From Clostridia bacterium (GTDB lineage Bacteria; Bacillota; Clostridia; Oscillospirales; CAG-272): DNA of 64,000 nucleotides. A program made the translations under genes and the position numbers. The DNA lies in contig JAFTQL010000035.1 of assembly GCA_017462795.1 (NCBI GenBank), positions 62,360 to 126,359 of the forward strand, in the 5' to 3' direction. The notes under the pieces are model-generated. The model did no database searches. It was not told where the DNA came from and saw nothing but the letters and a program-made list of their open reading frames with translations. Positions 12,510 through 42,585 of the stretch are shown here, one piece after another; positions within the stretch are counted from its first letter, which is position 1; every line of letters begins with the position of its first letter.

Positions 12510-13760
12510 TCATTCTTTTATGAATGTAATAACGACATCCGACAAAAGAAGGAAATGGTCGGTATGACCCGTGTCGATAGCGCGGGCGTTGCTGCCCTCG
12601 ATACCCGCTGAGAAGATGATATTGTCGAACATCTGTCCGTTCTTGGTAGTCACAATATTCGTGCCCGCGTTGTTTGCCTTGGTGCTTCCCGGGAAGGCAT
12701 CGTCAAAATCGGACCATGTCTGCCAGTTAAAGTCACCCGCAACGATATAATGGCTATGGTTCTTTGCCTGTTCGTATATCTCGGCGAGCTGAGTTTTGAT
12801 AGTTCCCTGGTCATTGTGTGAGGAATAGAAGGCAAATTCTTCTCCTTCGACCTCGATGATCGTTTCAAGGAGCACACAGTTATTTTTTGAATTCATAACT
12901 GTCATTGGATACTCTTTGATTTCCTTGATAGGATATTTGGAAACTACTCCGACACCGCACCACCATTCCTCGCCTGCGGGAACATGGGTGCCGTTTGTCT
13001 CGTAAACACCGCTTGTCGCCTTACCGTACGCATAATAGTACTTCTGTCCGTTTCTGCTCTCAAGAGACTCCGCAATGATCCTGAGCGTATCCTGTCCCCA
13101 ATTTCGATTGGTGTTATAGTCTATCTCCTGAAAGGCGATAATGTCGGCGCCGTTATCATAAATATCGTCGGCTATCTTTGTGAAATCGGGGCTTCTTGAA
13201 TAGCTGTTACCAAGCTCGTGCGCGCCGCCCTCGTGAAGATTGAAGGTGGCAACCGTAAGCTCGATGTGCTTGTCGGTGTCGGCAACCGTCTTTCGCGTGG
13301 GAAGACCGGAAATACTCCATGTGTTGCCATCCTGCTTAAGAAGTTCCACAAACATCTCAGCGGCAGTCTCGACAAGATCCTCGTTCACACCGTAAAGAGC
13401 TATCTTTGTTCCTACCGCTGTGATAAGCAGCTCACGGTCAGCAAGTGACTCCGTGTTTGACGCTCTGTTCGTTTCTCCTATGAGTATCTCCTTTTCCCTC
13501 TCGGAGGCGGAATCATTTGTATATGGGATCGTGACACCTGTAAGCTCCTTTATCCTCTCGGATATAGCGACAGCCGTCTTTCTCATGGAGCGGTCGCCCG
13601 ACATGGAAAATACTATCTGATACTCAGAAGCTCCGTCAGCGCAGATGACCGCGCCCGTATCGTTATTGCTCTCCGTGTCATCAGTATTGCCTCCGCATGC
13701 GGTAAGCAGACACATGAGAAAGGCGAGAATCATTACTGTAATTTTTTTAATGATCTTCAT
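12510..13760 (-). CDS. Cassette A exported EEP-fold (endonuclease/exonuclease/phosphatase) phosphoesterase lipoprotein
   Basis: 416 aa. Lipobox LLTAC|GG. The N-terminal ~140-aa accessory domain contains ..EILIGETN... The EEP motifs are TVATFNLHEGG, IIAFQEID, GDFNW and the C-terminal GHTDHFLLL. Confidence 0.8.
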   Translation of the reverse strand: MKIIKKITVMILAFLMCLLTACGGNTDDTESNNDTGAVICADGASEYQIVFSMSGDRSMRKTAVAISERIKELTGVTIPYTNDSASEREKEILIGETNRASNTESLADRELLITAVGTKIALYGVNEDLVETAAEMFVELLKQDGNTWSISGLPTRKTVADTDKHIELTVATFNLHEGGAHELGNSYSRSPDFTKIADDIYDNGADIIAFQEIDYNTNRNWGQDTLRIIAESLESRNGQKYYYAYGKATSGVYETNGTHVPAGEEWWCGVGVVSKYPIKEIKEYPMTVMNSKNNCVLLETIIEVEGEEFAFYSSHNDQGTIKTQLAEIYEQAKNHSHYIVAGDFNWQTWSDFDDAFPGSTKANNAGTNIVTTKNGQMFDNIIFSAGIEGSNARAIDTGHTDHFLLLSDVVITFIKE

Positions 13761-13879
13761 ATTTTATTCCTCATTTCGCATAGAAGTGTGGATGCTTGAG
13801 ACCGACATCCCTCAGGGCGAAGAAATGCCCAAATTTCCTTCACCCGTCGGTACTGTCGGAGTAATTACTCAAAAAACGA

Positions 13880-14008
13880 TCAAAGCTCTTCGATGCCTAC
13901 GGACATGTTGATGTCGTCAGCCTGTATACCGTTACTCAATGCAATGATATCCTTGCTTTCAAGAGCTATAGCGATCACAACGGGAGTTGTATATGTATTC
14001 TTTTTCAT
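13880..14008 (-). CDS. Small ORF A (42 aa), member of a three-copy peptide family
   Basis: Below the ORF-track size cutoff; own translation: MKKNTYTTPVVIAIALESKDIIALSNGIQADDINMSVGIEEL. AGGAG lies ~9 nt upstream. It shares Y-[TI]-x-P-x(9)-[KEQ]-D-I-[IM]-x-x-S with the ORFs at 30253-30399 and 41214-41354. Confidence 0.55.
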   Translation of the reverse strand: MKKNTYTTPVVIAIALESKDIIALSNGIQADDINMSVGIEEL

Positions 14009-14036
14009 AATCTTATTCTCCTTTTCCATATTAGGA

Positions 14037-15266
14037 TCAAGCCACGGTAACGCTGATTTCCTTAGCCGCGCTCACATACTTATTGCCTGCCGCGTCGGTC
14101 ACATAGGCGCGTACAACAAAGGTGTAAGACTTACCTGCCGAAAGACCTGTAACCGTCATAACTCCGAGATAACCGTCTGTTGCGGTAACGGTCTCCCCTG
14201 CCGCCTTGATAGATGTGTAAACGGTGGTAGAGCTGAGTATCTTTGCGCCCTTTGTACTATCCTTCAAGGATATCTCAAAGCCGTGAGATGCGTAATTTGC
14301 AAGCTCAGCCTCGGTCATGTTCAGCTCGGATACAACACGCAATGTAGTATTGTCGCTACTGAGCTGTCCGCCCTTTACGGTAGCGCGGCAGTTCTGGATA
14401 TCTGCGTAGCGCTCCGCGAAGTCAACGGAGTATTTGGTTTCACTTGACGTTTTTATAGAAATATCGGAAATCCAACCCTCCATATACGTCCACGCTGTAT
14501 CATCATATAACTCACGAAAACCTAAGCAGAAATTACCGTCATTGCCGAGAGATATAGGAGTTCCAAGGGTGTGCGTCCACACTTTTGATGTGTCACTCGC
14601 AAGAGTCATTTTTACTGTTGAAATTTGTTTGGTATCCACATCAACAAGAAAATCATATATGATTGCGATCTCGCCGTATATTACGTTTTTTGCAATTACA
14701 GATGTTGTTCCTGTAAGGAGAGCATCGCCGCGCGCCCAATATGTTTCAGTCCCCTCCTGATTACCACACACCTTGAGCGCATTTTTGGTATCATCCTGCA
14801 TATCCGATAAAAAGCCCCATTCACCGGCTGCGTCTACATTGCTTGAAATGTCGCTTCCTGCTCCGAATATCAGGTATGTACGATTTTTTCGGTTGGGCTT
14901 ATTGGTTTGAGTAGCACTCTCATTTGTTCCTGACAAATTCGTATGCTTTGATAACATTGTTACAGAAATCGTATAATCTTCTGTTAATTCCGTCATGTCA
15001 TACTGTTCGTGAGTGATCATAATACCTGCCGCACCTTGACAGAAGGCCTTAATATAAAGTCCATTGTTTGTCAGCATAGACTTACTTGCTTTAAATTCTT
15101 TGTCATTTAAGGTTGATGCATAACTGTTATATGAGCTTTGAACTGTCTTAACACCAACATTATCCGCATAAATCGTCTTGGTACTTTCTTCTGCTGAAAC
15201 GCTGAGGGGTAAAGCAGCAAGTGTTACACACAAAACTGCCAATATTAAAGATATTACCTTTTTCAT
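14037..15266 (-). CDS. Cassette A free member: secreted protein, N-terminal domain paralogous to 8899-10836, C-terminal shared ~100-aa module
   Basis: I prefer the start at 15266 (MKKVISLILAVLCVTLAALPLSVSA|EE) over the track start at 15356. C-terminal module: ..TLRVVSELN..GFEISL..TTVYTSIKAAG..SYTFVVRAYVTDAAGNKY. It has no anchor. Confidence 0.8.
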   Translation of the reverse strand: MKKVISLILAVLCVTLAALPLSVSAEESTKTIYADNVGVKTVQSSYNSYASTLNDKEFKASKSMLTNNGLYIKAFCQGAAGIMITHEQYDMTELTEDYTISVTMLSKHTNLSGTNESATQTNKPNRKNRTYLIFGAGSDISSNVDAAGEWGFLSDMQDDTKNALKVCGNQEGTETYWARGDALLTGTTSVIAKNVIYGEIAIIYDFLVDVDTKQISTVKMTLASDTSKVWTHTLGTPISLGNDGNFCLGFRELYDDTAWTYMEGWISDISIKTSSETKYSVDFAERYADIQNCRATVKGGQLSSDNTTLRVVSELNMTEAELANYASHGFEISLKDSTKGAKILSSTTVYTSIKAAGETVTATDGYLGVMTVTGLSAGKSYTFVVRAYVTDAAGNKYVSAAKEISVTVA

Positions 15267-16305: not shown

Positions 16306-17814
16306 TTAAATATCCATCCGAACTCTCAGACAACCGTCTGTCGGCTCCGCTCTGTACCCGTTCTCCGTCTCATGAAGCTCGCCGTCAATACCGACAGCAT
16401 AGCTATATCCGTTATGCTCAAAGCAAAGCGTTTTGCCGTCAAGTCCTTTAAGATCCCGACACTCGCCAAGGCTTATAAGCATATCTCCGCAGTCATGGCC
16501 ACTGAGTCCCGTCTCCGAGAAAATAAGCCTTCCCTTATGACCGTCGGTGAATTTAACAGTTACTTCAAGCTCTCCTCTCTCATTCTCCGCAGAGCCTTCA
16601 AGACATTCAACAGCATCCGCAAATATCCACGCGCACTCGCCCCTGTCCCCGCTCCACATGCGGTTATCCACAACGGGCAAATTATCGTAGGTCGCCTGCC
16701 ATGCGTTACAAGCCGATCTCAGATATCTCTCGACATATTTGTCATCATATTTCTGTATATCCCTGAAAATAAGTCTGCCATCCTTTAAGAACAGATCACC
16801 TCTCCAATTTGCGCTGCTGTACCAGATCGATTGGATTCCGTTATCCGACCAATCCTTGAAGGCGCTGAGGGATGATGCGGGAGTTTTTTTATGCGTTTTT
16901 TGGAAATCCGCTCCCGTTTTGCCGAGACATTCTATATTGACTTTTCCGTCTTTTTGGAGCTTGGCAAGCTTCTCTGCTTGCATACGGTAGCCCTTTTCTA
17001 TCCTCTGCCAGCCAAAGCTGTTCTCCTGTCCCGTGGTCGCTTGGCTCATGGCAAGGGATGGGTGGGAGTAATATTCTTCGAAGTACCAATCCATAACACC
17101 GCTGTTCGCGCCGCAGGGCCACACGGGCTCCATGGTAAAGCAACCGCCGATCTTGGGCAGGTGCTTTTTCTCGTCATAGCCGTAGATAGGGTCTATACCA
17201 AGCATACGGAACACGGGGGTATTTATCTTTGTTTCCTCACTCTGCGAGGGACAAAGCATATTATTGCGCGAGGGATAATATCCGCCGCTATAATATCCTC
17301 CCCAGAGAGTGTAGGCGTCAACGGCATACTGCTCACGGCAGATGCAGAATGCGTCCATACCATATTTGTCGCTCATATACGCCATTGAATGAGCGTCAAG
17401 CAACCATGAGCCCGCAACCCTTGGATAATATCCGAAGGTCTTCATAAAGAGGTCAAATACCTCGTCAATAAGCTCTTCTCTCTGTCCGGGCGTATAGGCA
17501 GGAAGAAATCCGGGATCTACGTACCAATCCCAATCAAAGCCCTCGCGTCCTCTCCACTCAACACCAACCTTTTCCGTAAGAGGTCTGCACATCTCAAACC
17601 AAAGCCCAAGCTCCATATCCCCGTCCTTCTCCCTTTTGAAAAGCTCGACTATATCCTCCCTGAGAAGGGCATCGTACTGCAAGAGGAATGTGTGCTTAAA
17701 GCCATACGACTTGTCAATTTTTATTTCTTCCTCTATGGGTGTGAGCAGATCCATTGCCTTTCTCGGCTCACAGCCTCTTACGAAGTTGACTATATTCATT
17801 ATGTTGTTCATCAT
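16306..17814 (-). CDS. Conserved cytoplasmic protein of unknown function (~500 aa), paralogue of 61352-62938
   Basis: 502 aa. NIVNFVRGCEPR, FLLQYDALL and ELGLWFEM align with NIINFVRGVEPR, FLLQYDALI and EIGLWLEI in 61352-62938. The start is ambiguous among three ATGs at 17814-17800. I do not recognise the family. Confidence 0.7.
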   Translation of the reverse strand: MMNNIMNIVNFVRGCEPRKAMDLLTPIEEEIKIDKSYGFKHTFLLQYDALLREDIVELFKREKDGDMELGLWFEMCRPLTEKVGVEWRGREGFDWDWYVDPGFLPAYTPGQREELIDEVFDLFMKTFGYYPRVAGSWLLDAHSMAYMSDKYGMDAFCICREQYAVDAYTLWGGYYSGGYYPSRNNMLCPSQSEETKINTPVFRMLGIDPIYGYDEKKHLPKIGGCFTMEPVWPCGANSGVMDWYFEEYYSHPSLAMSQATTGQENSFGWQRIEKGYRMQAEKLAKLQKDGKVNIECLGKTGADFQKTHKKTPASSLSAFKDWSDNGIQSIWYSSANWRGDLFLKDGRLIFRDIQKYDDKYVERYLRSACNAWQATYDNLPVVDNRMWSGDRGECAWIFADAVECLEGSAENERGELEVTVKFTDGHKGRLIFSETGLSGHDCGDMLISLGECRDLKGLDGKTLCFEHNGYSYAVGIDGELHETENGYRAEPTDGCLRVRMDI

Positions 17815-17819
17815 TCACC

Positions 17820-20186
17820 TTAATAGGAAGTTATTCTTTCTACCGTATAAGTCGTACTTTCAAGGTTGTAAACACGGCGGTTGTGGGAGAACAGGTCTCT
17901 AATTCCTTCTTTAGAAGCAACTCTCCAGCCTCTCGGGAGCGTCATACAGCCCTCAACTCCCTCGGGTATCTGCACCTTAAGTATTATCTTTTCTCCGTCT
18001 CTCTGCCACTTGACCTCTACTCTGCCCTTTACAGTATCGTAATAAGCCGATGCGTGCGTCAGCTTCTCTATAAAGCTGGGAGCTATGCGGACGTAGCTTG
18101 CGTTATCTCCGTGAGGATTTATCTGAAGTCCCGCAATGTGCGCTATAAAGAAGCCCGTTATATCTCCGTGGAAATGGTGATTGAGTGAGGTATGCACCAT
18201 CTTGTGCGAGGGCAGAAATTTTTCGGCGAATGAGCCAAGCTCATACTTCTCCACCCACATTCCGTATGAGGGGCAATCGGTACGGGTTATCATCTTGTAT
18301 GCAAGCTCCGCGTCACCGTGCTTTGCGAGCACACGGAATATACACCGCAGTCCTATCATTCCGCAGTCGATGTGGTCGTCCATTTCGTGTATCATATCAA
18401 GCAGGACACTATATGCCGTGGCGCTGTCCTTACCCTCAAAGAGTCCGTAGTAAAGAGCCGCCGCCTGCGCTGTCTGACATCCGCCGTATACTACCGCACC
18501 GTCGTCAACCAGGTATCTGTGGAAGGCTGTAAAGAACTCGTCTCCGAGTCTCTTAGCGAAATCCGCCTGCAAGTCAAGTCCGCATTCTCTGAACATAAAC
18601 TCAGCCTTACGGCAGATATTATAGGAAACCGCGGTATCCGTGGTTACATTGGGACAGATATGGTTAGAGCCCGATCGCAGAGCCTGACAGTAGTCACCGA
18701 GACCTATATTTATAGTTCCGTTGTCGCTTCTTCTCTTTGAAAGGTAATTGAGGTAATGCATGAGCATATCTGCGCATTCAAGAAATAGCGTCTTGTCGCC
18801 GCGGTAGATATACACCTGATAGGGTATCTCTATCATGACCTGATCCCAAGCGGGTCCGTTACCCCACTTGAAGCCAGCACCCGACGTTGGGATATATCCG
18901 GGTATCTGACCGCTCGGGCGCTGTACCTCTCTTATCATCTTAAGCCACTGCGCAAGGCTCTTCTCTACGGTAAGCGTCTGGAGCATGTGCTCCGCGGACA
19001 CTGCCGCGTCACCCGTCCAGCCGTTCTTCTCTCTGTGAGGACAGTCCATTGGGAAATACACGAAATTGGCAAGGTCGCTGTTTCTACCGTATCTCATAAG
19101 CTCGTTAGCTATATAGTCCGAGCACTCAAAGTTTCCTCTTTCCTTAAGATCGGAGTTAAGTACAAGAGCTGTGAGAGTATCATCGGTTATCTGCTCGCGG
19201 TCAATTCCTATGACCATATAGTATTTTGCGCCGTGGTAGGTAAACGAGGGAATATATTCCTCTATCTCCTCACCGCCACGACAAATATAGATATCTCTTT
19301 GACAAAAGCCGAATGGATAGAAGCTCTGAAGGTTCTCAAAGGCTATATCTCCCTTTTCGTCCAACCACTCTGCCGCCTGTATAGCGATAACCTGTCCTTC
19401 TCTACCCTTTATGCGAAGGCGAGGAACTGAAGACAAGTTGTCTTTGAACTTAAAGAGGAATCCTCTTTCGTTTTCCGCGGGCTTATAGTATGTGGTATTG
19501 GATATCTCGTAGGTATCGGGGCGAATCATATCGGGCATCTGTATATCCGCAATACCGCACTCCGTTACCTCGTAAGGCTTTAGCTCCTTGGTTATGACTA
19601 TAGGGTCAGTGTTATTGAGCTCATACACTCCGCGGGCGGGGTCGGTAGGTATTGCCGCCGTCCACTCGCTGTCGTCGAAGTCTGGAAGATTCCAACCCTC
19701 AATTTCCTTACGAGCGTCGTAATGCTCTCCACTTCTGAGGTCGTCGAATATGATGGGTGAAGGAGCGCAAACAAAGCTTTCGTCAGCCTCAAACTCCAAC
19801 ACATCCGATTCAAAGTGAAGTGCCACCTTGGGAGACGAGCGGTATTTTGCGTTATGGAAGTTCCATATATATCCGCCTATAGGATTTCCGTTTCCGTTGC
19901 CAAGCCAAAGAGCGATACAGTTTTTACCCTTCCTTAAATATTTGGCGATGTCGTATTCGTAAAAAAATATTATCTCGTCGGGATTTGTGATATTGGGAGC
20001 AAGTCTGCTGCCCGTTATCTCCTCGCCGTTTACATACAGACGGTAGAATCCCGTACAGGTAATCGTAAGCTTCGCATTGGCGGGCATTGCCCCAAGCTCA
20101 AAGCTCCTTCGCATATATGGCGCCGCTACCGGCTTATCATACGTACAGTATTCCGCTGTCGCCTTTATAAATTTTTGCGAAAGCAT
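17820..20186 (-). CDS. GH78 alpha-L-rhamnosidase
   Basis: 788 aa. The N-terminal pattern AKLTITCTGFYRLYVNGEEITGSRLAP and the overall length and architecture are typical of bacterial alpha-L-rhamnosidases. No signal peptide. Confidence 0.8.
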   Translation of the reverse strand: MLSQKFIKATAEYCTYDKPVAAPYMRRSFELGAMPANAKLTITCTGFYRLYVNGEEITGSRLAPNITNPDEIIFFYEYDIAKYLRKGKNCIALWLGNGNGNPIGGYIWNFHNAKYRSSPKVALHFESDVLEFEADESFVCAPSPIIFDDLRSGEHYDARKEIEGWNLPDFDDSEWTAAIPTDPARGVYELNNTDPIVITKELKPYEVTECGIADIQMPDMIRPDTYEISNTTYYKPAENERGFLFKFKDNLSSVPRLRIKGREGQVIAIQAAEWLDEKGDIAFENLQSFYPFGFCQRDIYICRGGEEIEEYIPSFTYHGAKYYMVIGIDREQITDDTLTALVLNSDLKERGNFECSDYIANELMRYGRNSDLANFVYFPMDCPHREKNGWTGDAAVSAEHMLQTLTVEKSLAQWLKMIREVQRPSGQIPGYIPTSGAGFKWGNGPAWDQVMIEIPYQVYIYRGDKTLFLECADMLMHYLNYLSKRRSDNGTINIGLGDYCQALRSGSNHICPNVTTDTAVSYNICRKAEFMFRECGLDLQADFAKRLGDEFFTAFHRYLVDDGAVVYGGCQTAQAAALYYGLFEGKDSATAYSVLLDMIHEMDDHIDCGMIGLRCIFRVLAKHGDAELAYKMITRTDCPSYGMWVEKYELGSFAEKFLPSHKMVHTSLNHHFHGDITGFFIAHIAGLQINPHGDNASYVRIAPSFIEKLTHASAYYDTVKGRVEVKWQRDGEKIILKVQIPEGVEGCMTLPRGWRVASKEGIRDLFSHNRRVYNLESTTYTVERITSY

Positions 20187-20202
20187 GTTTTTTCTCCTTT
20201 GG

Positions 20203-21537
20203 TCACAGGACTATTTCAAATTCGTTTGCGAATTTTGATGACAGCCTGACTGTCCTTTTTATATCTCCCACGGTTATTTCATATTCGCCGAAGAAGCCTT
20301 TGAACTTTGCCTCTCCATCTCCGTCCGTCTCACAATCGGTAACTGTTGTCCACTCATTATGAAACAGATCATGCAGAACGTCGTACGCGGGCTTAGGCTT
20401 TAAATTGAAGTCAAGCAGACCACCGCGAAAATAATTCTCTCCCGCGCTCATGTCTCCGAGAGGAGCGAACGCCGCGTATCCGTCGGGAAGATTCCAATAT
20501 ATCGCCGCCTCAACCGCAGGATGACTGAACCAAATGCGGTAAAGCCTCTCCAATATCTCTGCCTGAAGAGCATAGTCCTCGGCTGTCTCACGGTATGCGG
20601 GAATGGTGATCTCAGTTATCTGAATGGGCTTACCCAGCTTTGCATAGCAATCAAGTATGCGATAGATATTTTTTGGATTATAGAGCGATTTCGCAAACAG
20701 CGCCTCGTCCTCATCCTTCTTGGTAAAGGCGTGGTACTGCATACCAATGCAGTCAATGCGCGCGCCGTTGCGAATCGAACGCTCCACAAGCTGATAATAA
20801 TCACTTCTGTTATAGGAAAACTGCTTTTGCTCAGGCTCCCAGATGTGAGTCGCTTCATTTATTATAAGCTCATTATAGGGGAAATACTTGTGGGCTACCT
20901 CAAAGCTGTCCTCAACAAACCTGTCGCTCTGATAAAACGGAGTCTTATCTCTGTTATTTCTGTCGGTACACAGCATCTCGTTGATGACCTCCCAGCCATG
21001 TATACGCTCAGAATATCTCTCGGCAAGCTCACGGTAGCGGCGGTCTATTCTCCGTTTAAGCGCGGGAATATCAAATTCATCCACCCATCCGGGATCAAAA
21101 TTCACATATGTAAGGCAATGCGCCTTGGGCGTGATATTGTTCTCCTCACAAAATTCAACACACAGATCAACAGGGGGACGGCGGTATATCTTAGGAGAAT
21201 CCTTCGCAAAGCGGGGCTTACCGTCCTCAGGCTCAAGAGTGTTCCAATATATCGGCACTGTAGCCTCATTAAAGCAATCCGCAAACGCATCTCGGTATTT
21301 ACGGTTATATTCGTCGGTATTGAATTCGTCCAACATAAATATATTTGCTCCGTGAAGGAACTCGTGCTTTTTGAGTTTCGCATGTATCTTTACACCCGGT
21401 ACGGCATTTCCCTCTTTGTCCTTTACGATAATATGAGCAAATCCTTTGCGGTAAAGCTCTATTCCGTGCTCCACTCGGTGAGCGGTCTCCTCCTCGTACC
21501 TGAGAAAGTTTTTCATAACGTTATCGCGTCTTGACAT
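20203..21537 (-). CDS. GH10-family glycosidase (xylanase-like), cytoplasmic
   Basis: 444 aa. IYWNTLEPEDGKPRF, an acid/base-like WEVINEM and a nucleophile-like IQITEITIPA. No signal peptide. Confidence 0.7.
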   Translation of the reverse strand: MSRRDNVMKNFLRYEEETAHRVEHGIELYRKGFAHIIVKDKEGNAVPGVKIHAKLKKHEFLHGANIFMLDEFNTDEYNRKYRDAFADCFNEATVPIYWNTLEPEDGKPRFAKDSPKIYRRPPVDLCVEFCEENNITPKAHCLTYVNFDPGWVDEFDIPALKRRIDRRYRELAERYSERIHGWEVINEMLCTDRNNRDKTPFYQSDRFVEDSFEVAHKYFPYNELIINEATHIWEPEQKQFSYNRSDYYQLVERSIRNGARIDCIGMQYHAFTKKDEDEALFAKSLYNPKNIYRILDCYAKLGKPIQITEITIPAYRETAEDYALQAEILERLYRIWFSHPAVEAAIYWNLPDGYAAFAPLGDMSAGENYFRGGLLDFNLKPKPAYDVLHDLFHNEWTTVTDCETDGDGEAKFKGFFGEYEITVGDIKRTVRLSSKFANEFEIVL

Positions 21538-23404: not shown

Positions 23405-24781
23405 TTATGTAGCTGTGCGACCAAGAAAATCCTCATAGTACCGTGCCAGAATTTTTTCAAAATTCGTCATGGCGATCTTCATACCCTCAAGATTAAGATG
23501 ACTTACGTCCGTAGACTTCATGCAATACTGCGCGCGGAAAGCGGAGCTTCGCATATCGATTCCCGAGACTGCAGGGTCACAGGCACGGATAAAATAAACT
23601 CCACGGCGTGTTGCCACCGCTTCCATTGCGTCCGCATAATCAACGTATGTATACAATTTTCCCGTGGCATTGGGGAAATTCCACGAGGAGACACAAACTA
23701 TCATAGCATCGGGATATTTCGCCTGAAGTCCGTCAATAATGACATTCAGCGCGCCTGAATATGTAGCTTCATCATAGCTGTCCGCTGTACCTATGGGAAC
23801 ATTCTGATTGAAATCATTTCTGCCGCCCTCGAGAAGTATTATGTCGGTGTTGGTTTCTGTCATGCTGTCAAATCTGTCGCACATGGGGTTGTATTTTGTA
23901 ACATAATTGGAAACGGTAGAGCCGTTTTTTCCGTAATTGTTCATGTCCATACCGTATTTCTTTGCCATGAGACTCAACCACACATAGTCCTTCTCAAGTC
24001 CGTTACCCTCAAAATAACTGTCCCCCAGCGCGTTTACGGTAACGCCCTCAAGTATTTTGGAATAATAGCTTGCCTTGCTGTCCTCAAACCATTGCTTCAG
24101 CGCCAGCTTACCAAGTGCCGTTCCGGGCTTCCCTGTCACGGCCGCCCTGACCTCGGGATACTCCGCGGGTCGAAAGCCTGATGTTTCTCCCGAACGGTAG
24201 CAAAGACGCAGGCTTTCATTGTTCAGCGTTGTGGTATACGAATACGTGGCAACACCGTTATCAAACGATATAAGGATATCGGACACCACTGTACTTGAGC
24301 CGGCGTAGTTCGCGCTGTCGAGATCGAGCACCCATTGCTCTCCATCCTTTTTCCATGACGAGACCACATATGCGTTGGAGGATGCGTAGCCGTTATCTCC
24401 ACCTGAATTTGTATTGTCGTCCGTAAATGTTATTGTCGTCCCTGCCTTTGGAACTGTAAATACATCGGTATACGAATAGTTACCGCCTCCCGAGCCCGCC
24501 ACAAGCTGATTGGGTTTTGTGCCGTGACTCGACGATGCCACATATCCAAGATTCCATTTCAGACTCAGCGTCTCCGTCTCGTCCTTATCCACAGCGTCTG
24601 TTATCGCATCTGTCACAGCTCCCGAATCCTTGTTAAAATCATCCGTTTGCTGTACGTTCACTTCTGTCTCTGTATCCGTATCGGTATGAGATGGTACTTG
24701 CTCATTGCAGGAAACAATAAGACAACACGATACAAGGACCAACACCGCCATCGCCCGCAAGATATAATCTCTTATTTTCAT
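23405..24781 (-). CDS. Lipoprotein: beta-rich N-terminal domain + SGNH/GDSL esterase domain
   Basis: 458 aa. Lipobox LIVSC|NE. SGNH blocks VNALGDSYFEG, GKNGSTV, LLEGGRNDF and DVSHLNLEGMK. The esterase half is a paralogue of the one in 43818-45590. Confidence 0.75.
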   Translation of the reverse strand: MKIRDYILRAMAVLVLVSCCLIVSCNEQVPSHTDTDTETEVNVQQTDDFNKDSGAVTDAITDAVDKDETETLSLKWNLGYVASSSHGTKPNQLVAGSGGGNYSYTDVFTVPKAGTTITFTDDNTNSGGDNGYASSNAYVVSSWKKDGEQWVLDLDSANYAGSSTVVSDILISFDNGVATYSYTTTLNNESLRLCYRSGETSGFRPAEYPEVRAAVTGKPGTALGKLALKQWFEDSKASYYSKILEGVTVNALGDSYFEGNGLEKDYVWLSLMAKKYGMDMNNYGKNGSTVSNYVTKYNPMCDRFDSMTETNTDIILLEGGRNDFNQNVPIGTADSYDEATYSGALNVIIDGLQAKYPDAMIVCVSSWNFPNATGKLYTYVDYADAMEAVATRRGVYFIRACDPAVSGIDMRSSAFRAQYCMKSTDVSHLNLEGMKIAMTNFEKILARYYEDFLGRTAT

Positions 24782-25496: not shown

Positions 25497-25498
25497 AT

Positions 25499-28903: not shown

Positions 28904-30238
28904 TCAGTCTTGTGTCAGTGTTTCGGTCTTTGTTGCTCCGCAAGAAATATTTCCGTCAGCGTCACTCATATAAGTAGTTACCGTTGCGGAAACAGTAGCC
29001 TCTGCGGGAACTCCCGCAATTACCAGAACATACAGATAATCTCCGTCGATCACCGTCTCACCCGACCGAGTCTGCTTTGTAGTGTAAGTAATTCCGCCAC
29101 CCTGAACAGATGTGTAGACGGTATTGCAGGATACCTTCTGAGCCTTGGTAACTCCGCCATATGTAACGGTTACGTAAAATCCTATATCATTTATCTCTCC
29201 GAGATCCTCTGTATCAAGAACTCCGACCATACGGTAATCAACAAGTCCGTCAACCACCCTGTCCTGAATACCGTAGTAGCGTGTACTTGCGCTCACATCT
29301 GACGTGCAATCCGATACGTTCAATGTTTTTGTTGAGCCACTCTTCAAATTAGCATAATTCGAAGGATTATACTCTGACGGCAGTACAGTACAGCTTGTGA
29401 CTGTGGTGTTGGCATTTACCAAACCTATAATACTACCAGCTGTCGAGGTACCCATCTCGCCTTCAAGACTCACACTACAATTTGAAACAGATACAGATCC
29501 CGCATTTACACAATATCCTATTATACCGCCGACATTACTCGTGCCTTTTACAGTTCCGTTAAAAGAACAGTTGCTGATAGTTACAGTCGTTGATGTATTT
29601 TTTGATGTATCGTTTGCAACAGCGTTCACAGAGCCTATAATACCGCCAACCTGACCTGCGCCCTTAACATTACCGTTTATAATGTGAACATTATCGATAA
29701 TCAGATCGCTGTCATAAACATTTAAGTTCATTCGTGAGCCTACAATAGCACCAACATTTGCAACAGCGGCAGCAGATTCGCCGTTACTGCTTGTATTTTC
29801 CGCTGACGCATCAACAGTAATATTGATCAATGTCAGGTTCTTGATAGTACCTCCTGCAAAACGGAACATACCGGGACTTGATTTGCAGTTTGTTACATTG
29901 ATTCCCGCAACCGTATGACCGTTACCATCAAATGTACCGTCAAAGATTATACCCTTCCACGTTTTACCCGTATAGTCGATATCCGCAGTCAGCTTTATGT
30001 ATGCACCCTTCAGATTAGTATGAGGGCTTGTAGAGCTGTTGAATGCCGCAAGCTCATCCGCAGAACCGATAGTAAGCTCTATAGACGCGAAATCATCTTT
30101 TGTATAACCGCTGGTGCCGGCAAGCCATGACGACATGGAAACCGGTGTTCTTTGCGCGCTGTCAGTCGCAAATACTCCCATGGGAAGAAGAGTGAGAAGC
30201 ATTGCGCAAAGTATTAAGCAACATATAATTCTTTTCAT
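28904..30238 (-). CDS. Cassette B free member: secreted GLUG-type beta-helix repeat protein ending in the shared C-terminal module
   Basis: I prefer the start at 30238 (MKRIICCLILCAMLLTLLPMGVFA|TD, with GGGGGG upstream). FDGTFDGNGHTVAGINV is followed by repeated ..N[CV]..NG.V.G...VGGIIG. units. The C-terminal module reads ..YRMVGVLD..IGFYVTV..NTVYTSVQGGG..GDYLYVLVIAGV.. Confidence 0.75.
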   Translation of the reverse strand: MKRIICCLILCAMLLTLLPMGVFATDSAQRTPVSMSSWLAGTSGYTKDDFASIELTIGSADELAAFNSSTSPHTNLKGAYIKLTADIDYTGKTWKGIIFDGTFDGNGHTVAGINVTNCKSSPGMFRFAGGTIKNLTLINITVDASAENTSSNGESAAAVANVGAIVGSRMNLNVYDSDLIIDNVHIINGNVKGAGQVGGIIGSVNAVANDTSKNTSTTVTISNCSFNGTVKGTSNVGGIIGYCVNAGSVSVSNCSVSLEGEMGTSTAGSIIGLVNANTTVTSCTVLPSEYNPSNYANLKSGSTKTLNVSDCTSDVSASTRYYGIQDRVVDGLVDYRMVGVLDTEDLGEINDIGFYVTVTYGGVTKAQKVSCNTVYTSVQGGGITYTTKQTRSGETVIDGDYLYVLVIAGVPAEATVSATVTTYMSDADGNISCGATKTETLTQD

Positions 30239-30252: not shown

Positions 30253-30399
30253 TCAAAACGGCCATTGGTAAACACCGTAACCGGTGCTTGTGCCGTTGCT
30301 GTCATCAAGCGATAACGTACCGCCCGATGTCACCATAATGTCTTCCGTTTGTGTACAGATCAATGTGCACTCGGGTGAAATATATTCTTTCATATTCAT
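30253..30399 (-). CDS. Small ORF B (48 aa; 46 if started at the second ATG), member of the three-copy peptide family
   Basis: Own translation: MNMKEYISPECTLICTQTEDIMVTSGGTLSLDDSNGTSTGYGVYQWPF. AAGGA is upstream. The stop lies 14 nt before the start of 28904-30238. Confidence 0.55.
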   Translation of the reverse strand: MNMKEYISPECTLICTQTEDIMVTSGGTLSLDDSNGTSTGYGVYQWPF

Positions 30400-31999: not shown

Positions 32000-33466
32000 T
32001 TATGAAAGGCTCTTGTAAAGCGACTCGAACTGACTGTTCCAGGATGTTACATTTCCCGAATAGTATGTGGAGATAGAGCCCTGTACCTTATCATCTCTCC
32101 AATAGGTATCCATCTGATACATATTGTAAGGATCGGGGGTAATGTTTGAACACATAGCCGCAAGATAGGTCAGAACGGACGTATCGCGGATTATCTCCAG
32201 CATATCCATCTGCCTTGGGCTGTTTGCGTACTGAAGTCCGAGTGTCTGCTCATAATATGCGGGCACTGCCTCGTAATGAGAATAGTAGGATTTTACCTCT
32301 ATCACCTTTCCGACAAGCTCAACATCAGCCGCGTTCTTCATTATCATGATCATCATTGCCGATGCGCCCGCAGGTGTGTAATATCTTCCCTGCTCCTCAT
32401 TATACATGGGCACGGGTGCAAGACCCCAATCAAAATCACTGTCACGGAAAAATTCTCCCGTTGACAAAAATCCGTGGTAGAACAGCGAGCGTCCCGCCTC
32501 AAATACGCCTCTTCCGGCATCCGAATCCGCAGATACCGTAACTACCATATTTGATACGTTGTTTTCAAAAACGGAGCTGAGATAGTCGTACATCTCAATA
32601 AAGCTCTCGCCTGCCGCTTCTTTCATATATATGTTACCGTCTTTGGTGCTTCTCTCGGTGACATTTGCGTTGAACGCTGTCATAAAGCCGCGGCTCGCCA
32701 CGCAGTGTCCCACATATCCGAAGGTATCCGAGGCAAGATTGCCCACACCGCCGTCAGCAGCTCCGCCAACCTTCTTTGCCATGCCGAACATGACCTCAGC
32801 CGTCCACTTATTTGCCTCAACAAGATCGTAAATATTGTCAAGACCGTGGTTGTCAAGTATTTCCTCATTGAAGAAGACAGCGCCCATACCCGAATAGTCT
32901 GTCAGAGACGCGTCGCTTCTGATACCGAAAAGCTTGCCGTTGATACCGTAGGTATTAAGCATGTCCGAAAGATACCAGGGCTTATCCGTCTCAAGCACCT
33001 CGACAGTTGTCAGATCAAGAACGAGTCCGTTTTTGAGGGCATATCCATAGGACGCGCTGGTCTCCGCCATGATAAGGTCGAACTCCGCGGTGCTGTCCAT
33101 CGCCATGGCGAGCAAACGGTTATTGAACGTCGCTCTTGTTGCCCAGTTGCCGTCAAGCTGAGTATAAGACATGTTGATACCAAGATGGGCTTTCACCTGA
33201 GCGTCTACTCCGAAGACCGCCTGACTTACAACCGTTCCGCCTGCCTCATTGGCATAGTCCAGAGTATCGTGAGTGGGTAAAAGTATTTTTATATCTTTTC
33301 CCTTGTTGTCCTCAGCGGCAACACTAAGAGGCAGTCTGTCATCATGGGTCTCAACCGTTCCCGGGGACGTATTGGAGCTTCCCTCATCCGGACCCTTACA
33401 TGACACGATAATGGGGATCAACATAAGCACCGCAAGCGCTAACGCCAGAACTTTGATCTTTCTCAT
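32000..33466 (-). CDS. Cassette B lipoprotein, solute-binding-protein-like (orphan)
   Basis: 488 aa. Lipobox IIVSC|KG. Paralogous to 10909-12444 and 45612-47093. Confidence 0.75.
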   Translation of the reverse strand: MRKIKVLALALAVLMLIPIIVSCKGPDEGSSNTSPGTVETHDDRLPLSVAAEDNKGKDIKILLPTHDTLDYANEAGGTVVSQAVFGVDAQVKAHLGINMSYTQLDGNWATRATFNNRLLAMAMDSTAEFDLIMAETSASYGYALKNGLVLDLTTVEVLETDKPWYLSDMLNTYGINGKLFGIRSDASLTDYSGMGAVFFNEEILDNHGLDNIYDLVEANKWTAEVMFGMAKKVGGAADGGVGNLASDTFGYVGHCVASRGFMTAFNANVTERSTKDGNIYMKEAAGESFIEMYDYLSSVFENNVSNMVVTVSADSDAGRGVFEAGRSLFYHGFLSTGEFFRDSDFDWGLAPVPMYNEEQGRYYTPAGASAMMIMIMKNAADVELVGKVIEVKSYYSHYEAVPAYYEQTLGLQYANSPRQMDMLEIIRDTSVLTYLAAMCSNITPDPYNMYQMDTYWRDDKVQGSISTYYSGNVTSWNSQFESLYKSLS

Positions 33467-35823: not shown

Positions 35824-36645
35824 ATGAAAATTCCCGAAATTATCATAATAAGAAACGGCACATGGCATAACTACCGAAAGCAAAAGAAGACACCGTCAAG
35901 ATTTGTGCTTACCTATGAGATCGAATATCACCGCAAAAGCTACGGTGAGACCACGATCAACGGAGTATCATATCCCATAGAAAAAGACACCGTTACCTTT
36001 AACCGCCCCGGCGACATACGGAGCAGCCGTTTCAATATAGGCATTGAAGCCGAGACCGAATTTTTTTATTTCATCGTAAGCGCGGACGAGAAGAACTCGA
36101 ACTTTGAGTATATGCTCGAAAACATTCCAAATCACACACGTGCGGATGAGAAAACTAAAAAAATGTGGGAAAAGATCACTTCCGATTACATCAACAAAAA
36201 CGATCCTCTCTTTGAAATGCAGGCATATCTCAACCTTTTGTCCTTCCTTACATTTCTCTCTCAAAAGGGACGCAATGACTCGCATCTGCCCACAGCTCCG
36301 TCGCCCCATCAGCTTGCGCTCTTTGAGGCTATCAGGTATATGCAGGAGCATCTTACCGAAAATATTTCGGTCAACGATATTGCGGCGCATATCGGCTACA
36401 GCCAATCACACTTCAATCACCTTTTCAAAACCTACACTCAGCACACCCCTCATTCCTACTATATATCGTTGAAAATAAGCGAGGCAAAATACATGCTTCT
36501 CAACACCAACAAAAGTATCGCGCAGATATCGGAGGCGCTGGCATTCAGCAAGACCAGCAAATTCAGCAGCGCTTTCAAAAAAGAATGTCACATGACTCCG
36601 GGTGAGTTCCGGAAAACACGCGACGTAATATTTTATAACGATTAA
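35824..36645 (+). CDS. AraC-family transcriptional regulator
   Basis: 273 aa. HTH: IGYSQSHFNHLFKTYTQHTPHSYY ... LAFSKTSKFSSAFKKECHMTPGEFRK. Confidence 0.8.
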   Translation: MKIPEIIIIRNGTWHNYRKQKKTPSRFVLTYEIEYHRKSYGETTINGVSYPIEKDTVTFNRPGDIRSSRFNIGIEAETEFFYFIVSADEKNSNFEYMLENIPNHTRADEKTKKMWEKITSDYINKNDPLFEMQAYLNLLSFLTFLSQKGRNDSHLPTAPSPHQLALFEAIRYMQEHLTENISVNDIAAHIGYSQSHFNHLFKTYTQHTPHSYYISLKISEAKYMLLNTNKSIAQISEALAFSKTSKFSSAFKKECHMTPGEFRKTRDVIFYND

Positions 36646-36765: not shown

Positions 36766-37599
36766 TTATCTGTAATATTTTCCCGTTCTCTTCAGGTAAT
36801 CGATGAGCATCATGGGCCAGTCTGTCTGTATCATATCAAAGCCTCTGTCAGCAAGCCAGCCCCAGCCCTCGTCCTCCGATACGGTAAGCGCCGTGTCGTC
36901 CGAGTGCCCAGCCGCTATCTGCCTTTTGCAGTCGTATATGATGGAATTCACCCATACCAGCTTGCCGTCCTTGTGCATTCTCTCAATAAAAGACTCTGAT
37001 GCCACATCGTCGGTATCATCATAAAACAGTACCTCAACTCCAACGTAGTTGATGTCTCTGCCCGACAGCTGCTCATGTCCGTCAAAGCTACGACTTACAA
37101 CGGGCATATAGGCAAGATCGGGAGCAAGCTCCTCAAGAACGCTCAGCACCTCCGGTGTGGGTGGCGCTTTTACAACGATCTGATCAAGCATATCATGCTT
37201 TTTTATAGCCCTGTATATCGCCTCGGGATTGCCCCAGAACTTATCCACATTGATAAAGCATCTTCCCTTGAAATGCTCAAGAAGATCATCAAATCTTTCT
37301 ATTCCAAACTGGGTGGGAACCCTATCTATATTCAGATATTTTAGCTCCGATACCTTATTCCATGAAAGCTCCGTAAGCTTTTCGGAAATGCCGAGATGAG
37401 CGCGTTCCATACCGGGATGGAAAATTATCAGCGCTCCGTCAGCCGTAATATTCACGTCTGTCTCTATCATATCCGCGCCCTGCTTCAGACCGATCTCATA
37501 GGATGCAATGGTGTTGCAAGGAATATTGCCGCCGAAAACTCCTCTGTGCGCAACGACCAGCAGCTTCTCCTCGGCGGATCTGCGTATATCAAATCTCAT
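36766..37599 (-). CDS. Glycerophosphodiester phosphodiesterase (GDPD) family protein
   Basis: 277 aa. LVVAHRGVFGGNIPCNT, GADMIETDV and IIFHPG. No signal peptide. Confidence 0.8.
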   Translation of the reverse strand: MRFDIRRSAEEKLLVVAHRGVFGGNIPCNTIASYEIGLKQGADMIETDVNITADGALIIFHPGMERAHLGISEKLTELSWNKVSELKYLNIDRVPTQFGIERFDDLLEHFKGRCFINVDKFWGNPEAIYRAIKKHDMLDQIVVKAPPTPEVLSVLEELAPDLAYMPVVSRSFDGHEQLSGRDINYVGVEVLFYDDTDDVASESFIERMHKDGKLVWVNSIIYDCKRQIAAGHSDDTALTVSEDEGWGWLADRGFDMIQTDWPMMLIDYLKRTGKYYR

Positions 37600-39357: not shown

Positions 39358-39417
39358 ATCCTTTTATACATCTCCTTTGACTTATTTACTCGTATTTCGG
39401 GATACGAAATGCTGAAT

Positions 39418-41214: not shown

Positions 41215-41354
41215 CAGAGCCTCATCAGATCGTCTATACTTATACCTGTGATATCATTGTCACTGTAAGCGCTCGTTGCCAGTGACGCGGTGATTATATC
41301 CTGCATATCAAAGATCTTTGCGTCTGCTATAGGACAAATATATTTCTTTTTCAT
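41214..41354 (-). CDS. Small ORF C (46 aa), member of the three-copy peptide family
   Basis: Own translation: MKKKYICPIADAKIFDMQDIITASLATSAYSDNDITGISIDDLMRL. GGAG is 8 nt upstream. Its TGA overlaps the ATG of the downstream lipoprotein gene (TGATG), which indicates translational coupling. Confidence 0.55.
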   Translation of the reverse strand: MKKKYICPIADAKIFDMQDIITASLATSAYSDNDITGISIDDLMRL

Positions 41355-41388
41355 TTTTATTCTCCGTTCAATTAAAGATTAGATTAAA

Positions 41389-42585
41389 TTAATTAATGGA
41401 AAAATCCGTTATCTTCGGACTGTGATCCGAGGAGAGACAAGCGTATCTGTCGGTAACTGTCGCGAAAAGCTCCACCAACAGTCCGTCCTGCCATACATGG
41501 TCTATAGACCATTCGCCGCTTTTTGAGGAATGGGAGGGACAGGTGATGAACAGCTCTGCCTCCGTGTCCCATACGGCATACGCGCCGTGACCGTTGACGG
41601 AGTTCAGCGCGCATCCCGAATCGTCAGCCGCGCTTTGTACTCTCACAAGACCGCTCTCAGCGAGTATGTCAAGCGGCTCTGTGTCTCCTCTGCCGTAGCT
41701 GCAGTTGAGGTCGCCTCCGACTATCATCGGCAAATTGCCGTGCTCCGCGCGGATATCCGCCAGCAGCTCTGTCAGCTCTACGGCATTTGAGCACCTGGTT
41801 TTATTGGCAACTCCCGCCTCAAGCTCGGGATCATTCCACATAAAGTGAGTACACATGGCGATAAATCTTTTTTTGTCGTCATTGCGCTCAAATACCGCCC
41901 ATGTTACCGATTTGGAGCTTACGTCGTTAGCACCGCCGAACAGTCTGTATCCGCACGCGACTACCTTCAAGGTGTCCGCTCTGTAAAACAGGGGGGTGAG
42001 GTTAGTTCCCTTTTCGTTGCGCAGCTCGCCGTTTCCCACCTCGGTATAACCAAGCGCCTCCAAGCCACCAAGGAACTCCTGCTTGCGGTAATGCTTGCCG
42101 AATTCCTGAAAGGCAAGTATATCGGCATTGTAGGATCTCAGCAGGCTGAGCTGAAAGGGCTGACGCTCGGCGGGCGTGGTGTTTGCCTTTTTGTTGTTCC
42201 AGCCGTATACGTTATAGTTCATATAACGTACCCGACCCGCCCGCTTTGCTCCGCAGGTCCTCAGAGAAACGCCGTCGCCCGACAACGATGTAATACCGTC
42301 AAGCGATTCCTTTGTCCGCAGCTCCTCACGGAGAGCCGACATTGCCGCCTCGTAGCCGTAGGCAGAGCCCGCGCATATGTATACGCGATCACCCTCGGAG
42401 CGGATCACATATCCGTCACCCTCGGGCATATCCGCATCGCCGATGTATATATCGCCGTCCGCCCCACTGTCGCATATTATTTCGGAAGTTATTCCCTGAT
42501 ATTCGGCTATCGCCGCCCGCAATTCCGACGCGGTATAGCGCTCCTCAAAGGACGCCTCTGCCGGAATTATTATCCGTTGATCCAT
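41389..42585 (-). CDS. Cassette C signal-less EEP-fold phosphoesterase with N-terminal accessory domain
   Basis: 398 aa. The N-terminal ~100 aa (..DIYIGDAD..DRVYICAGS..) resemble the accessory domains of 12510-13760 and 39418-41214. Motifs ILAFQEFG, GGDLNCS and SSDHSPKITDF. The start overlaps the stop of 42585-43796 (TAATG). Confidence 0.8.
   Translation of the reverse strand: MDQRIIIPAEASFEERYTASELRAAIAEYQGITSEIICDSGADGDIYIGDADMPEGDGYVIRSEGDRVYICAGSAYGYEAAMSALREELRTKESLDGITSLSGDGVSLRTCGAKRAGRVRYMNYNVYGWNNKKANTTPAERQPFQLSLLRSYNADILAFQEFGKHYRKQEFLGGLEALGYTEVGNGELRNEKGTNLTPLFYRADTLKVVACGYRLFGGANDVSSKSVTWAVFERNDDKKRFIAMCTHFMWNDPELEAGVANKTRCSNAVELTELLADIRAEHGNLPMIVGGDLNCSYGRGDTEPLDILAESGLVRVQSAADDSGCALNSVNGHGAYAVWDTEAELFITCPSHSSKSGEWSIDHVWQDGLLVELFATVTDRYACLSSDHSPKITDFSIN

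Follow-up and report, generated by a model that had tools for sequence, protein, structure and literature searches.

The 64 kb of DNA analysed here (64,000 nt of contig JAFTQL010000035.1, from an uncultured gut Clostridia bacterium; hereafter the window) is, as judged from open reading frame (ORF) listing and Pfam scans, a sugar-catabolic island of 49 genes. Its sequence occurs also in ruminant gut metagenomes, and an Rfam scan of the window found no RNA element. As a first-pass annotation of this DNA had claimed, the window carries six EEP-fold genes and two GDPD genes, and all eight lie on the minus strand at the positions given below. Paralogy within the window was analysed by all-against-all BLAST. 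Export was called by manual inspection of the N-terminus on the longest possible ORFs and with a PROSITE-style regular expression for the lipobox. The Pfam cut-offs were 24.5 bits for PF03372, 27 bits for PF23226, 23.6 bits for PF03009 and 32.9 bits for PF13472. The EEP genes belong to three cassettes, A, B and C:

12510..13760, minus strand: EEP-A lipoprotein, cassette A; 416 aa; lipobox LLTAC; PF03372 50.3 bits
15386..16174, minus strand: EEP-A cytoplasmic protein, cassette A; 262 aa, single domain, no signal peptide; PF03372 37.3 bits
27852..28901, minus strand: EEP-B cytoplasmic protein, cassette B; 349 aa, no signal peptide; PF03372 44.3 bits
33502..34683, minus strand: EEP-B lipoprotein, cassette B; 393 aa; lipobox MAGAC; PF03372 40.6 bits
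39418..41214, minus strand: EEP-C lipoprotein, cassette C; 598 codons, two N-domains and EEP domain; lipobox LVGC; interrupted by TAG
41389..42585, minus strand: EEP-C cytoplasmic protein, cassette C; 398 aa, N-domain and EEP domain; PF03372 38.3 bits

The six proteins form three pairs of paralogues: pair A (12510 and 15386, 41% identity over the EEP domain), pair B (33502 and 27852, 44% identity) and pair C (39418 and 41389, 35% identity). Each pair consists of one lipoprotein and one paralogue without signal peptide; the lipoboxes of 12510, 33502 and 39418, in line with the three EEP lipoproteins counted in the first-pass annotation, were recognised both by eye and by the regular expression. 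The catalytic set N / E / D-x-N / D / D-H is intact in six of six proteins, but the motifs had been worded too strictly: pair B has LQE and not FQE, and 12510 has TDH and not SDH. In 15386 these residues are N10, E63, D193, N195, D251 and H252. N-E-D-N-D-H was retained in 69 of 69 A-family relatives, and the catalytic residues were also kept in the EEP-B family alignment A1.

That six EEP genes lie within 30 kb reflects an expansion specific to the lineage, seen also in related metagenome-assembled genomes (MAGs). A word-filtered search of 5.8 billion proteins yielded 37 matches for the EEP-B family; for the EEP-A family, an exhaustive search of 1.84 billion representatives yielded 248 clusters at E<=1e-3.

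The AlphaFold model of 12510 (pLDDT 94) showed an alpha/beta N-domain (approximately residues 37-160) followed by a canonical EEP domain. A Foldseek comparison of this model with the PDB returned EEP folds exclusively, with all EEP clades at similar scores, and the fold therefore does not tell the substrate. The N-domain of 12510 was found by BLAST to be common to the proteins of pair C, and in 39418 it matched weakly to NAGLU_N, a domain otherwise located at the front of glycosidases; this similarity is no more than a hint.

The EEP-C lipoprotein gene had been counted among the six EEP genes. It is indeed a single 599-codon frame (39418-41214), but contains an in-frame TAG which had been overlooked (40033-40035, minus strand, context LTELG*SEV) and which splits the gene in the window into ORFs of 393 aa and 180 aa. 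Its PF03372 score, 19.9 bits, was obtained for the fragment after the TAG alone. In L026 (4272-6068), from another sample, the gene agrees with the window's copy over 1797 nt save for this codon, which is TAT (Tyr) instead of TAG; it is called there as 598 aa and has a weak PF03372 match. In the paralogue 41389, Tyr is aligned at this position. TAG is the normal stop codon of 3 of the 49 window genes. Stop-codon recoding at 40033-40035 was ruled out because of these three genes and of the TAT allele in L026, and the TAG is a single-base strain variant or a sequencing error.

Three five-gene cassettes

Each EEP pair is part of a five-gene cassette. Alongside the EEP lipoprotein and its cytoplasmic counterpart, this codes for a solute-binding-protein (SBP)-like lipoprotein, a surface protein anchored at its C-terminus and a secreted paralogue of the latter. 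The three parallel cassettes are diverged copies of one five-gene surface cassette, and the order "SBP-like, then anchored protein" is constant in all of them. The components other than the EEPs, together with a small ORF located in cassette B, are as follows:

8899..10836, minus strand: anchored surface protein, cassette A; 645 aa; signal peptide; GGCGS, transmembrane (TM) segment and KRKK tail
10909..12462, minus strand: SBP-like lipoprotein, cassette A; 517 aa; lipobox; SBP_bac_1/8 matches sub-threshold
14037..15266, minus strand: secreted protein, cassette A; 409 aa; type-I signal peptide; N-domain paralogous to 8899; Ig-like tail
28904..30238, minus strand: secreted GLUG-motif protein, cassette B; 444 aa; signal peptide; Ig-like tail
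30253..30399, minus strand: conserved acidic 48-aa ORF between the GLUG genes of cassette B; orthologues in L001, L003 and L007
30472..31947, minus strand: anchored surface protein, cassette B; 491 aa; GLUG-type right-handed beta-helix; GGCGS, TM segment and KKRK
32000..33466, minus strand: SBP-like lipoprotein, cassette B; 488 aa; lipobox; syntenic in L001, L003, L006 and L007
42585..43796, minus strand: secreted protein, cassette C; 403 aa; Ig-like tail
43818..45590, minus strand: anchored surface protein, cassette C; 590 aa; N-domain, SGNH esterase domain, GGCNS, TM segment and basic anchor
45612..47093, minus strand: SBP-like lipoprotein, cassette C; 493 aa; lipobox VFAGC; SBP_bac_8 31.9 bits

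BLAST showed that the SBP-like lipoproteins 10909, 32000 and 45612 are homologous to each other. The secreted proteins 14037, 28904 and 42585 are paralogues of the N-terminal part of the anchored protein of their own cassette: 14037 and 8899 share 38% identity over 310 aa, and the N-domain of 43818 is 47% identical to 42585. These variable domains differ from cassette to cassette, being GLUG beta-helices in B and beta-rich domains without family assignment in A and C; 8899-10836 had no Pfam or NCBIfam match. All three secreted proteins end in an Ig-like domain of approximately 100 aa (14037-14366, 28904-29233 and 42585-42914, minus strand) with the motifs TVYTSI, DGDYLY and TGL. This shared tail may be a docking or cell-wall-binding module.

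The anchored proteins 8899, 30472 and 43818 have another tail in common, GGC[GN]S followed by about 20 hydrophobic residues and KRK. Its Gly-Cys (G464 and C465 in 30472-31947) does not vary among 41 homologues. Similarity to MYXO-CTERM and sortase-type sorting signals stayed below threshold, and the tail is a candidate for an uncatalogued Cys-containing C-terminal sorting signal in Clostridia. No sorting enzyme for it is encoded in the window, and NCBIfam provided no name for the C-terminal tails, the exported proteins without assignment or any of the EEPs.

In the secreted protein of cassette B, 28904-30238, the FDGTFDGNGHTV motif was found together with GGIIG repeats, and PF07581 (GLUG) is present in many homologues of the anchored protein 30472. 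The AlphaFold model of 30472 (pLDDT 82) had its best PDB match in 3n6z (E 1.8e-7, TM 0.62 on target), with pneumococcal IgA1 protease and its beta-helix in second place; against pectate lyase and GH28 the values were E ~1e-2 and TM <0.25. The candidate role of 30472 as a hidden glycanase or lyase was thus not supported, the GLUG beta-helix being nearest to non-catalytic helices of the IgA1-protease type. A catalytic role for the two GLUG beta-helix proteins (30472 and 28904) is still conceivable.

The orthologues of the acidic ORF 30253-30399 (L001 14294-14449, L003 14276-14431 and L007 7463-7609) encode 48-51 aa with the motif MKxYIxPE...EDhM...W; the ORF has no signal peptide, no TM segment and no family match.

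Placement of the EEP proteins

With single sequences of the three EEP types as queries, no useful match was obtained among the PDB sequences; family profiles did give useful matches and were used for the PDB comparisons. For pair A, since 65 of 69 relatives match PF23226 (PGAP2IP-type; C-terminal nuclease-like domain; best E 8e-17), the proteins appear to belong to the PGAP2IP-type EEP subfamily. This subfamily includes sugar-specific phosphodiesterases (PMC10704324), among them GlcNAc-PDase, a secreted enzyme of gut Clostridia which strips phosphocholine or phosphoethanolamine off C6 of GlcNAc; it depends on the sugar and does not act on 4MU-PC (Fossa et al. 2023, J Biol Chem 299:105437; PMC10704324). 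The catalytic set of the window's EEPs corresponds to N60, E89, D204, N206, D266 and H267 of GlcNAc-PDase, the residues mutated in that study. It is likely, but unproven, that pair A falls inside the "Clostridia group" of GlcNAc-PDase; the assayed homologues MBS6702114, HCG67795, MBE6669927 and NLD61619 were absent from the cluster members looked up for pair A. In the PDB, the structures nearest to the A-family profile were the uncharacterised 3teb and sphingomyelinases (SMases).

For the B and C profiles the nearest structures were the Bacteroides EEPs 3g6s and 3mpr, together with BT3783 (4c1r), TDP2, PDE12 and nocturnin. The EEP-C profile matched 3g6s with E 8e-14 and the mannosyl-6-phosphatase BT3783 (4c1r) with E 7.8e-7; for the EEP-B profile the match to 4c1r had E 6.8e-5. 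TDP2 and PDE12 act on nucleic acids, and the EEP clade near pairs B and C is one that mixes sugar-phosphate enzymes with nucleic-acid enzymes.

These matches raise the possibility that the EEPs, at least those of pairs B and C, are BT3783-type sugar-phosphate monoesterases and not polymer-opening phosphodiesterases. Such enzymes would strip the phosphate from mannose-6-phosphate of fungal mannan or N-glycans, or from phosphorylated starch, so that glycosidases can proceed. The profile matches to 4c1r point in this direction, as do the closest structures, since 3g6s and 3mpr are Bacteroides EEPs of the BT3783 group, and the linkage of the EEP genes to glycoside hydrolase (GH) genes recalls BT3783, which lies alongside GH genes in its polysaccharide utilization locus (PUL). 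However, the E-values are weak, with TDP2 and PDE12, both diesterases, as well as the uncharacterised 3g6s scoring equal to BT3783 or better; the operon of cassette C contains two genes for GDPDs, which are diesterases; and pair A groups with diesterases (SMase, GlcNAc-PDase). We consider this explanation possible but unlikely; the EEP chemistry may be that of a diesterase (GlcNAc-PDase type) or of a monoesterase (BT3783 type).

The A-family profile matched, in partial stretches only, S. aureus beta-hemolysin (8e-11), B. cereus Bc-SMase (2.5e-8) and other SMases (~1e-8), and human neutral SMase was second in the Foldseek ranking of the 12510 model. PGAP2IP/Cwh43 relatives, moreover, function in glycosylphosphatidylinositol (GPI) lipid remodelling (PMC10704324). 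The exported EEPs could accordingly be seen as lipid phosphodiesterases of the SMase/phospholipase C type, freeing glycan or polyol-phosphate head groups for import and trimming from plant glycosylinositol phosphoceramides (GIPCs) or from Bacteroidota ceramide-phosphoinositol or ceramide-phosphoethanolamine. This is improbable: the assayed bacterial PGAP2IP-type enzymes need the sugar and are inactive on the sugar-free 4MU-PC (PMC10704324), pairs B and C have no SMase affinity (E ~1), the cytoplasmic paralogues would have no lipid substrate, and genes for a ceramidase or a lipase are absent.

Many nucleases have the EEP fold, and weak sub-threshold matches to ExoIII, MnuA, ExeM/NucH, TDP2, PDE12 and CCR4 were obtained. 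It is nevertheless very improbable that the EEP lipoproteins are surface nucleases scavenging DNA or RNA for phosphate and nucleosides, in a coincidental setting of sugar genes. With the nuclease models of NCBIfam the six EEPs scored 15-30 bits against cut-offs of 99-300, and none was reached (best scores: exoDNase_III 30.5 against 182.6, MnuA 16.6 against 185, ExeM/NucH 21.5 against 300). A grouping with nucleases, which the first-pass annotation had held to be incompatible with its own reading, was therefore not seen. Furthermore, the operon of every exported EEP also codes for a cytoplasmic paralogue, several genomes show synteny of the cassettes with GH, SGNH and sugar-transport genes, and the window contains no nucleoside or phosphate uptake genes. 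By these comparisons the six EEPs look like carbohydrate-linked phosphoesterases rather than nucleases.

Catabolic genes around the cassettes and their conservation

The GDPD genes and the other catabolic and regulatory genes surrounding the cassettes are:

581..8747, minus strand: distal cassette A operon, all products cytoplasmic; GH127-like, GFO/IDH/MocA oxidoreductase, beta-phosphoglucomutase (beta-PGM)-type HAD, GH65 phosphorylase, MGH1/GH63-like
16306..21537, minus strand: proximal cassette A operon, all products cytoplasmic; GH10-like, GH78 rhamnosidase, 502-aa protein
23405..24781, minus strand: SGNH esterase lipoprotein; 458 aa; PF13472 60.3 bits; orthologues end cassette B in L001 and L003
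34724..35635, minus strand: GH16-like cytoplasmic protein, head of the cassette B operon; PF00722 38.4 bits; intact ExDxxE, residues 164-169
35824..36645, plus strand: AraC-type regulator, divergent from the cassette B operon; syntenic in relatives
36766..37599, minus strand: cytoplasmic GDPD with DUF4996; 277 aa; PF03009 58.8 bits, PF16387 92.2 bits
37709..38416, minus strand: cytoplasmic GDPD; 235 aa; PF03009 134.3 bits
38434..39357, minus strand: DUF4886-like cytoplasmic protein; 307 aa; PF16227 24.2 bits, sub-cut-off; GNSF motif near the N-terminus

Both GDPDs fall short of the UgpQ and GlpQ equivalog cut-offs of NCBIfam and are therefore generic GDPDs. Two SGNH esterase domains are exported, as had been annotated: 23405 has the lipobox IVSC, and 43818 (PF13472 50.1 bits) has a type-I signal peptide (PAMA/W) as well as its C-terminal membrane anchor. 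The protein 38434-39357 is possibly a further, SGNH-like esterase, and a weak SGNH match (PF13472 20.7 bits) was found at the C-terminus of the GH63-like protein. Equally in line with the first-pass annotation, the GH63-like, GH65, GH127-like, GH78, GH10-like, GH16-like and GH5-like proteins have no signal peptide, showing no hydrophobic N-terminus even on the longest ORF; the GH36 protein of the window is likewise without signal.

The GH65 protein is nearest to kojibiose phosphorylase 3wiq (9e-124), followed by 2-O-alpha-glucosylglycerol phosphorylase 4ktp (1e-96). In the operon, the MGH1/GH63-like hydrolase gene comes before the GH65 gene and the gene of the beta-PGM-type HAD after it. Together, GH65, the beta-PGM-type HAD and the MGH1/GH63-like hydrolase (2502-5474 and 581-2485, minus strand) look like the end of an alpha-1,2-glucoside or glyceryl-glucoside pathway.

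A module consisting of an MBL-fold hydrolase, an SDR and an enolase-superfamily dehydratase is duplicated at 24819-27580 and 49695-54602, with 37-55% identity between the copies, and two GFO/IDH/MocA oxidoreductases, 5474-6757 and 47288-48583, are 72% identical. The duplicated modules look like oxidative (deoxy)sugar pathways. Two further cytoplasmic paralogues, 16306-17814 and 61352-62938 (minus strand; 500-530 aa, 43% identity), are located beside GH78 and GH36 and are conserved in a related MAG (L023, 6354-7856); nothing in Pfam, NCBIfam or the PDB sequences matched them, and they may represent a carbohydrate-active family not yet classified.

The synteny of cassette B in the related loci L001, L003, L006, L007 and L009 extends to the AraC regulator, the GH16-like gene and an SGNH or enolase gene at the end. 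The GH16-like protein 34724-35635 is the most conserved of the cassette B products across MAGs, with 87-90% identity in L003, L006 and L007 as against 53-68% for the adjacent EEP lipoprotein. Cassette A with the GH10-like, GH78, ~500-aa and GH127 genes is syntenic in RGIG4231, and the same order was found in L023 and L024. Relatives of EEP-B are confined to a few MAGs of uncultured gut Clostridia and Lachnospiraceae, each of which has several copies.

In RGIG4182, a distant MAG, the genes of two EEP lipoproteins adjoin those for SBP lipoproteins, ABC sugar permeases, a GDPD and a protein with a GDS motif, and a cytoplasmic EEP comes after an SBP and two permeases. In other MAGs, too, EEP genes are thus linked with genes for GHs, SGNH proteins, GDPDs and sugar uptake.

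Tandem arrays of EEP-B genes, often coding for lipoproteins, were seen in distant gut MAGs (L014 2496-15056, L018 1492-9428 and L011 8189-14302); one array consists of four proteins of ~1000 aa in a row and another of three to four shorter ones. The large EEP-B-like proteins of distant MAGs (700-1250 aa) contain no other Pfam domain, and such fusions are therefore uninformative. The 10 kb past the right end of the window (L005, 1-10000) encode a Metallophos phosphoesterase, another GH127 and more ~500-aa proteins without assignment.

A proposed phosphoester-first route and its relation to known systems

We propose, with a probability of about one half, that the window is a catabolic island by which an uncultured gut Clostridia bacterium forages on phosphate-linked or phosphate-decorated glycans, attacking the phosphoesters first by means of the three cassettes. 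The proposal starts from gene content, export signals, paralogy, subfamily placement, catalytic residues and synteny, from which we infer enzyme activities, substrate and transport. The surface proteins would capture a phosphate-containing glycoconjugate. The EEP lipoprotein would hydrolyse a sugar-linked phosphoester, either stripping phosphocholine, phosphoethanolamine or glycerol-phosphate or cutting the phosphodiester of the repeat unit, and the exported SGNH esterases would take off acyl groups. Uptake of the fragments would rely on a transporter whose genes lie in another part of the genome. Inside the cell, the cytoplasmic EEP paralogue and the two GDPDs would remove leftover phosphoesters, and the cytoplasmic GHs and the GH65/beta-PGM pair would release monosaccharides in a final trimming. 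The cassettes sit in AraC-controlled operons with cytoplasmic glycosidases, GDPDs and sugar-catabolic enzymes. There are three EEP subfamilies and three unrelated binding domains, and the three cassettes therefore probably have three different targets.

This route modifies the one suggested in the first-pass annotation, in which phosphodiester and ester bonds were attacked outside the cell and glycosidic bonds inside. That earlier route is supported in part: the EEPs look carbohydrate-linked, and their association with SGNH, GDPD and sugar-uptake genes is conserved, but three of the six EEPs and both GDPDs are cytoplasmic; phosphoester hydrolysis would therefore occur on both sides of the membrane. 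The idea that only esterases are exported holds for the recognisable enzymes but not for the exported proteins as a whole, five more of which have no assigned function, including the two GLUG beta-helices. Internal glycosidic trimming fits the GHs without signal peptides, but no transporter for the import step is encoded in the window.

As to the substrate, teichoic-acid-type wall glycopolymers, that is glycosylated and esterified poly(polyol-phosphate), would be the best-fitting class, and within it glucosylated poly(glycerol-phosphate) would fit best. When the phosphodiesters of glucosylated or kojibiosylated poly(glycerol-phosphate) are cleaved, alpha-1,2-glucosides and glyceryl glucosides remain, and the fit is suggested because the GH65 protein is nearest to kojibiose and 2-O-alpha-glucosylglycerol phosphorylases and occurs with beta-PGM, the MGH1-like hydrolase and the GDPDs. 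Teichoic acid had been one of the candidates named earlier; the GH65 affinity lends it circumstantial support.

That the cassettes turn over the cell's own envelope glycopolymers (teichoic acids, capsule) rather than external substrates is hardly to be expected: their products are indeed lipoproteins and anchored surface proteins, and in B. subtilis GlpQ and PhoD degrade the cell's own teichoic acid under phosphate starvation, but the AraC-regulated operons hold catabolic GH65/beta-PGM, enolase-type dehydratases, a kinase and an aldolase, and there are no glycosyltransferases, flippases or biosynthetic genes in the 64 kb.

Several points weigh against phosphoester-first foraging. PF23226 is marginal for the A proteins of the window themselves (15386: 27.3 bits against the cut-off of 27, partial; 12510: no match at E<=0.001), and pair A is likened to GlcNAc-PDase through Pfam subfamily, residues and size, not by direct sequence comparison. 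Pairs B and C match BT3783 weakly (E 1e-5 to 1e-7), and TDP2 and PDE12 at least as well. The SBP-like proteins match SBP models weakly, and a PDB search gave no or marginal matches. No transporter or multi-TM protein is encoded in the 64-kb window or in the 10 kb past its right end; of the components that mark a Gram-positive PUL (transporter, regulator and GH), the locus has regulators and GHs and no transporter. The export calls rest on inspection by eye and a regular expression, with no dedicated predictor. The set of GH78, GH127-like, GH10-like, GH16-like and GH36 is not specific for any teichoic acid, and unrelated sugar operons may have come together as a mosaic in this island. The remaining GHs and the two deoxy-sugar-type oxidative modules indicate no single polymer.

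Phosphate-linked or phosphate-decorated glycans are abundant in the gut, including teichoic acids, capsules, phosphocholine- and phosphoethanolamine-modified glycans and phosphomannans. We know of very few enzymes that open phosphate-linked glycans, and of none in a described Firmicutes utilisation system. EEP sugar-phosphoesterases (GlcNAc-PDase, BT3783) and glycan-utilisation loci are already known kinds. The literature searched contained no description of an EEP enzyme that depolymerises capsules or teichoic acids, of a gut locus for the utilisation of teichoic acids, or of the thrice-repeated cassette with its lipoprotein/cytoplasmic EEP twins, binding proteins and Cys-containing tail. A bolder version of the proposal, which we offer as tentative and rather doubtful, is that the three cassettes form a Gram-positive surface system in which EEP phosphodiesterases, not glycanases, would be the outer depolymerases or "uncappers" of phosphodiester-linked glycopolymers (teichoic acids, capsular and other phosphoglycans), each with its own recognition proteins on a new Cys-containing sorting signal and with a cytoplasmic EEP twin to complete the cleavage. 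Such a system would amount to a route of glycan use that begins with the phosphoesters, for example on bacterial necromass in the gut.

If phosphoester-first foraging takes place, it would provide a testable model for the recycling of bacterial cell-wall polymers by gut Clostridia. It would also imply three new sugar-phosphoesterase specificities, useful as glycoanalytical tools like GlcNAc-PDase, together with a possible new sorting signal and several families of surface proteins so far without assignment. Should the EEPs be nucleases or simple phosphatases, the window would be a sugar island of the ordinary kind in which a gene family has expanded unusually.

Among known systems, the GlcNAc-PDase "Clostridia group" (PMC10704324) comprises metal-dependent EEP enzymes of gut Clostridia which are placed beside PGAP2IP/Cwh43 and near sphingomyelinases. 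They have six metal-binding residues and a single domain of ~260-300 aa, and act on sugar-linked phosphodiesters, not on nucleic acids; pair A shares their residues and size and, as it appears, their Pfam subfamily. Unlike the secreted GlcNAc-PDase, 15386 has no signal peptide, and 12510 has an additional N-domain and a lipobox. Pair A is, moreover, at most 45% identical to its nearest relatives outside its own clade, and no cassette context is described in PMC10704324.

Of the solved structures, those closest to pairs B and C are BT3783 (4c1r) and the uncharacterised 3g6s and 3mpr, EEPs of glycan-utilisation loci that clear phosphate for glycosidases. The similarity is remote (E 1e-5 to 1e-14), the host of the window is Gram-positive and BT3783 is a monoesterase. 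Pair B has ~100 extra residues within the fold, and pair C one or two extra N-domains.

Hydrolysis of phosphodiesters in or on cell-wall glycopolymers is known from GlpQ (a GDPD) and PhoD of Bacillus subtilis and from Pce, the MBL-fold phosphorylcholine esterase of S. pneumoniae; the window has two GDPDs. GlpQ is secreted, whereas these GDPDs are cytoplasmic, and none of the three enzymes has the EEP fold (PMC10704324), unlike the exported phosphoesterases described here.

PULs, both the Sus-like ones of Bacteroidota and those of Gram-positive bacteria, differ in that the surface enzyme of the window is a putative phosphoesterase and not a glycanase, that the locus has no transporter, that the cassette is present three times and that its binding components belong to families without assignment and carry a Cys-containing C-terminal anchor. 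They are alike in their general layout: a surface binding lipoprotein, additional binders, a surface enzyme, intracellular trimming and a regulator.

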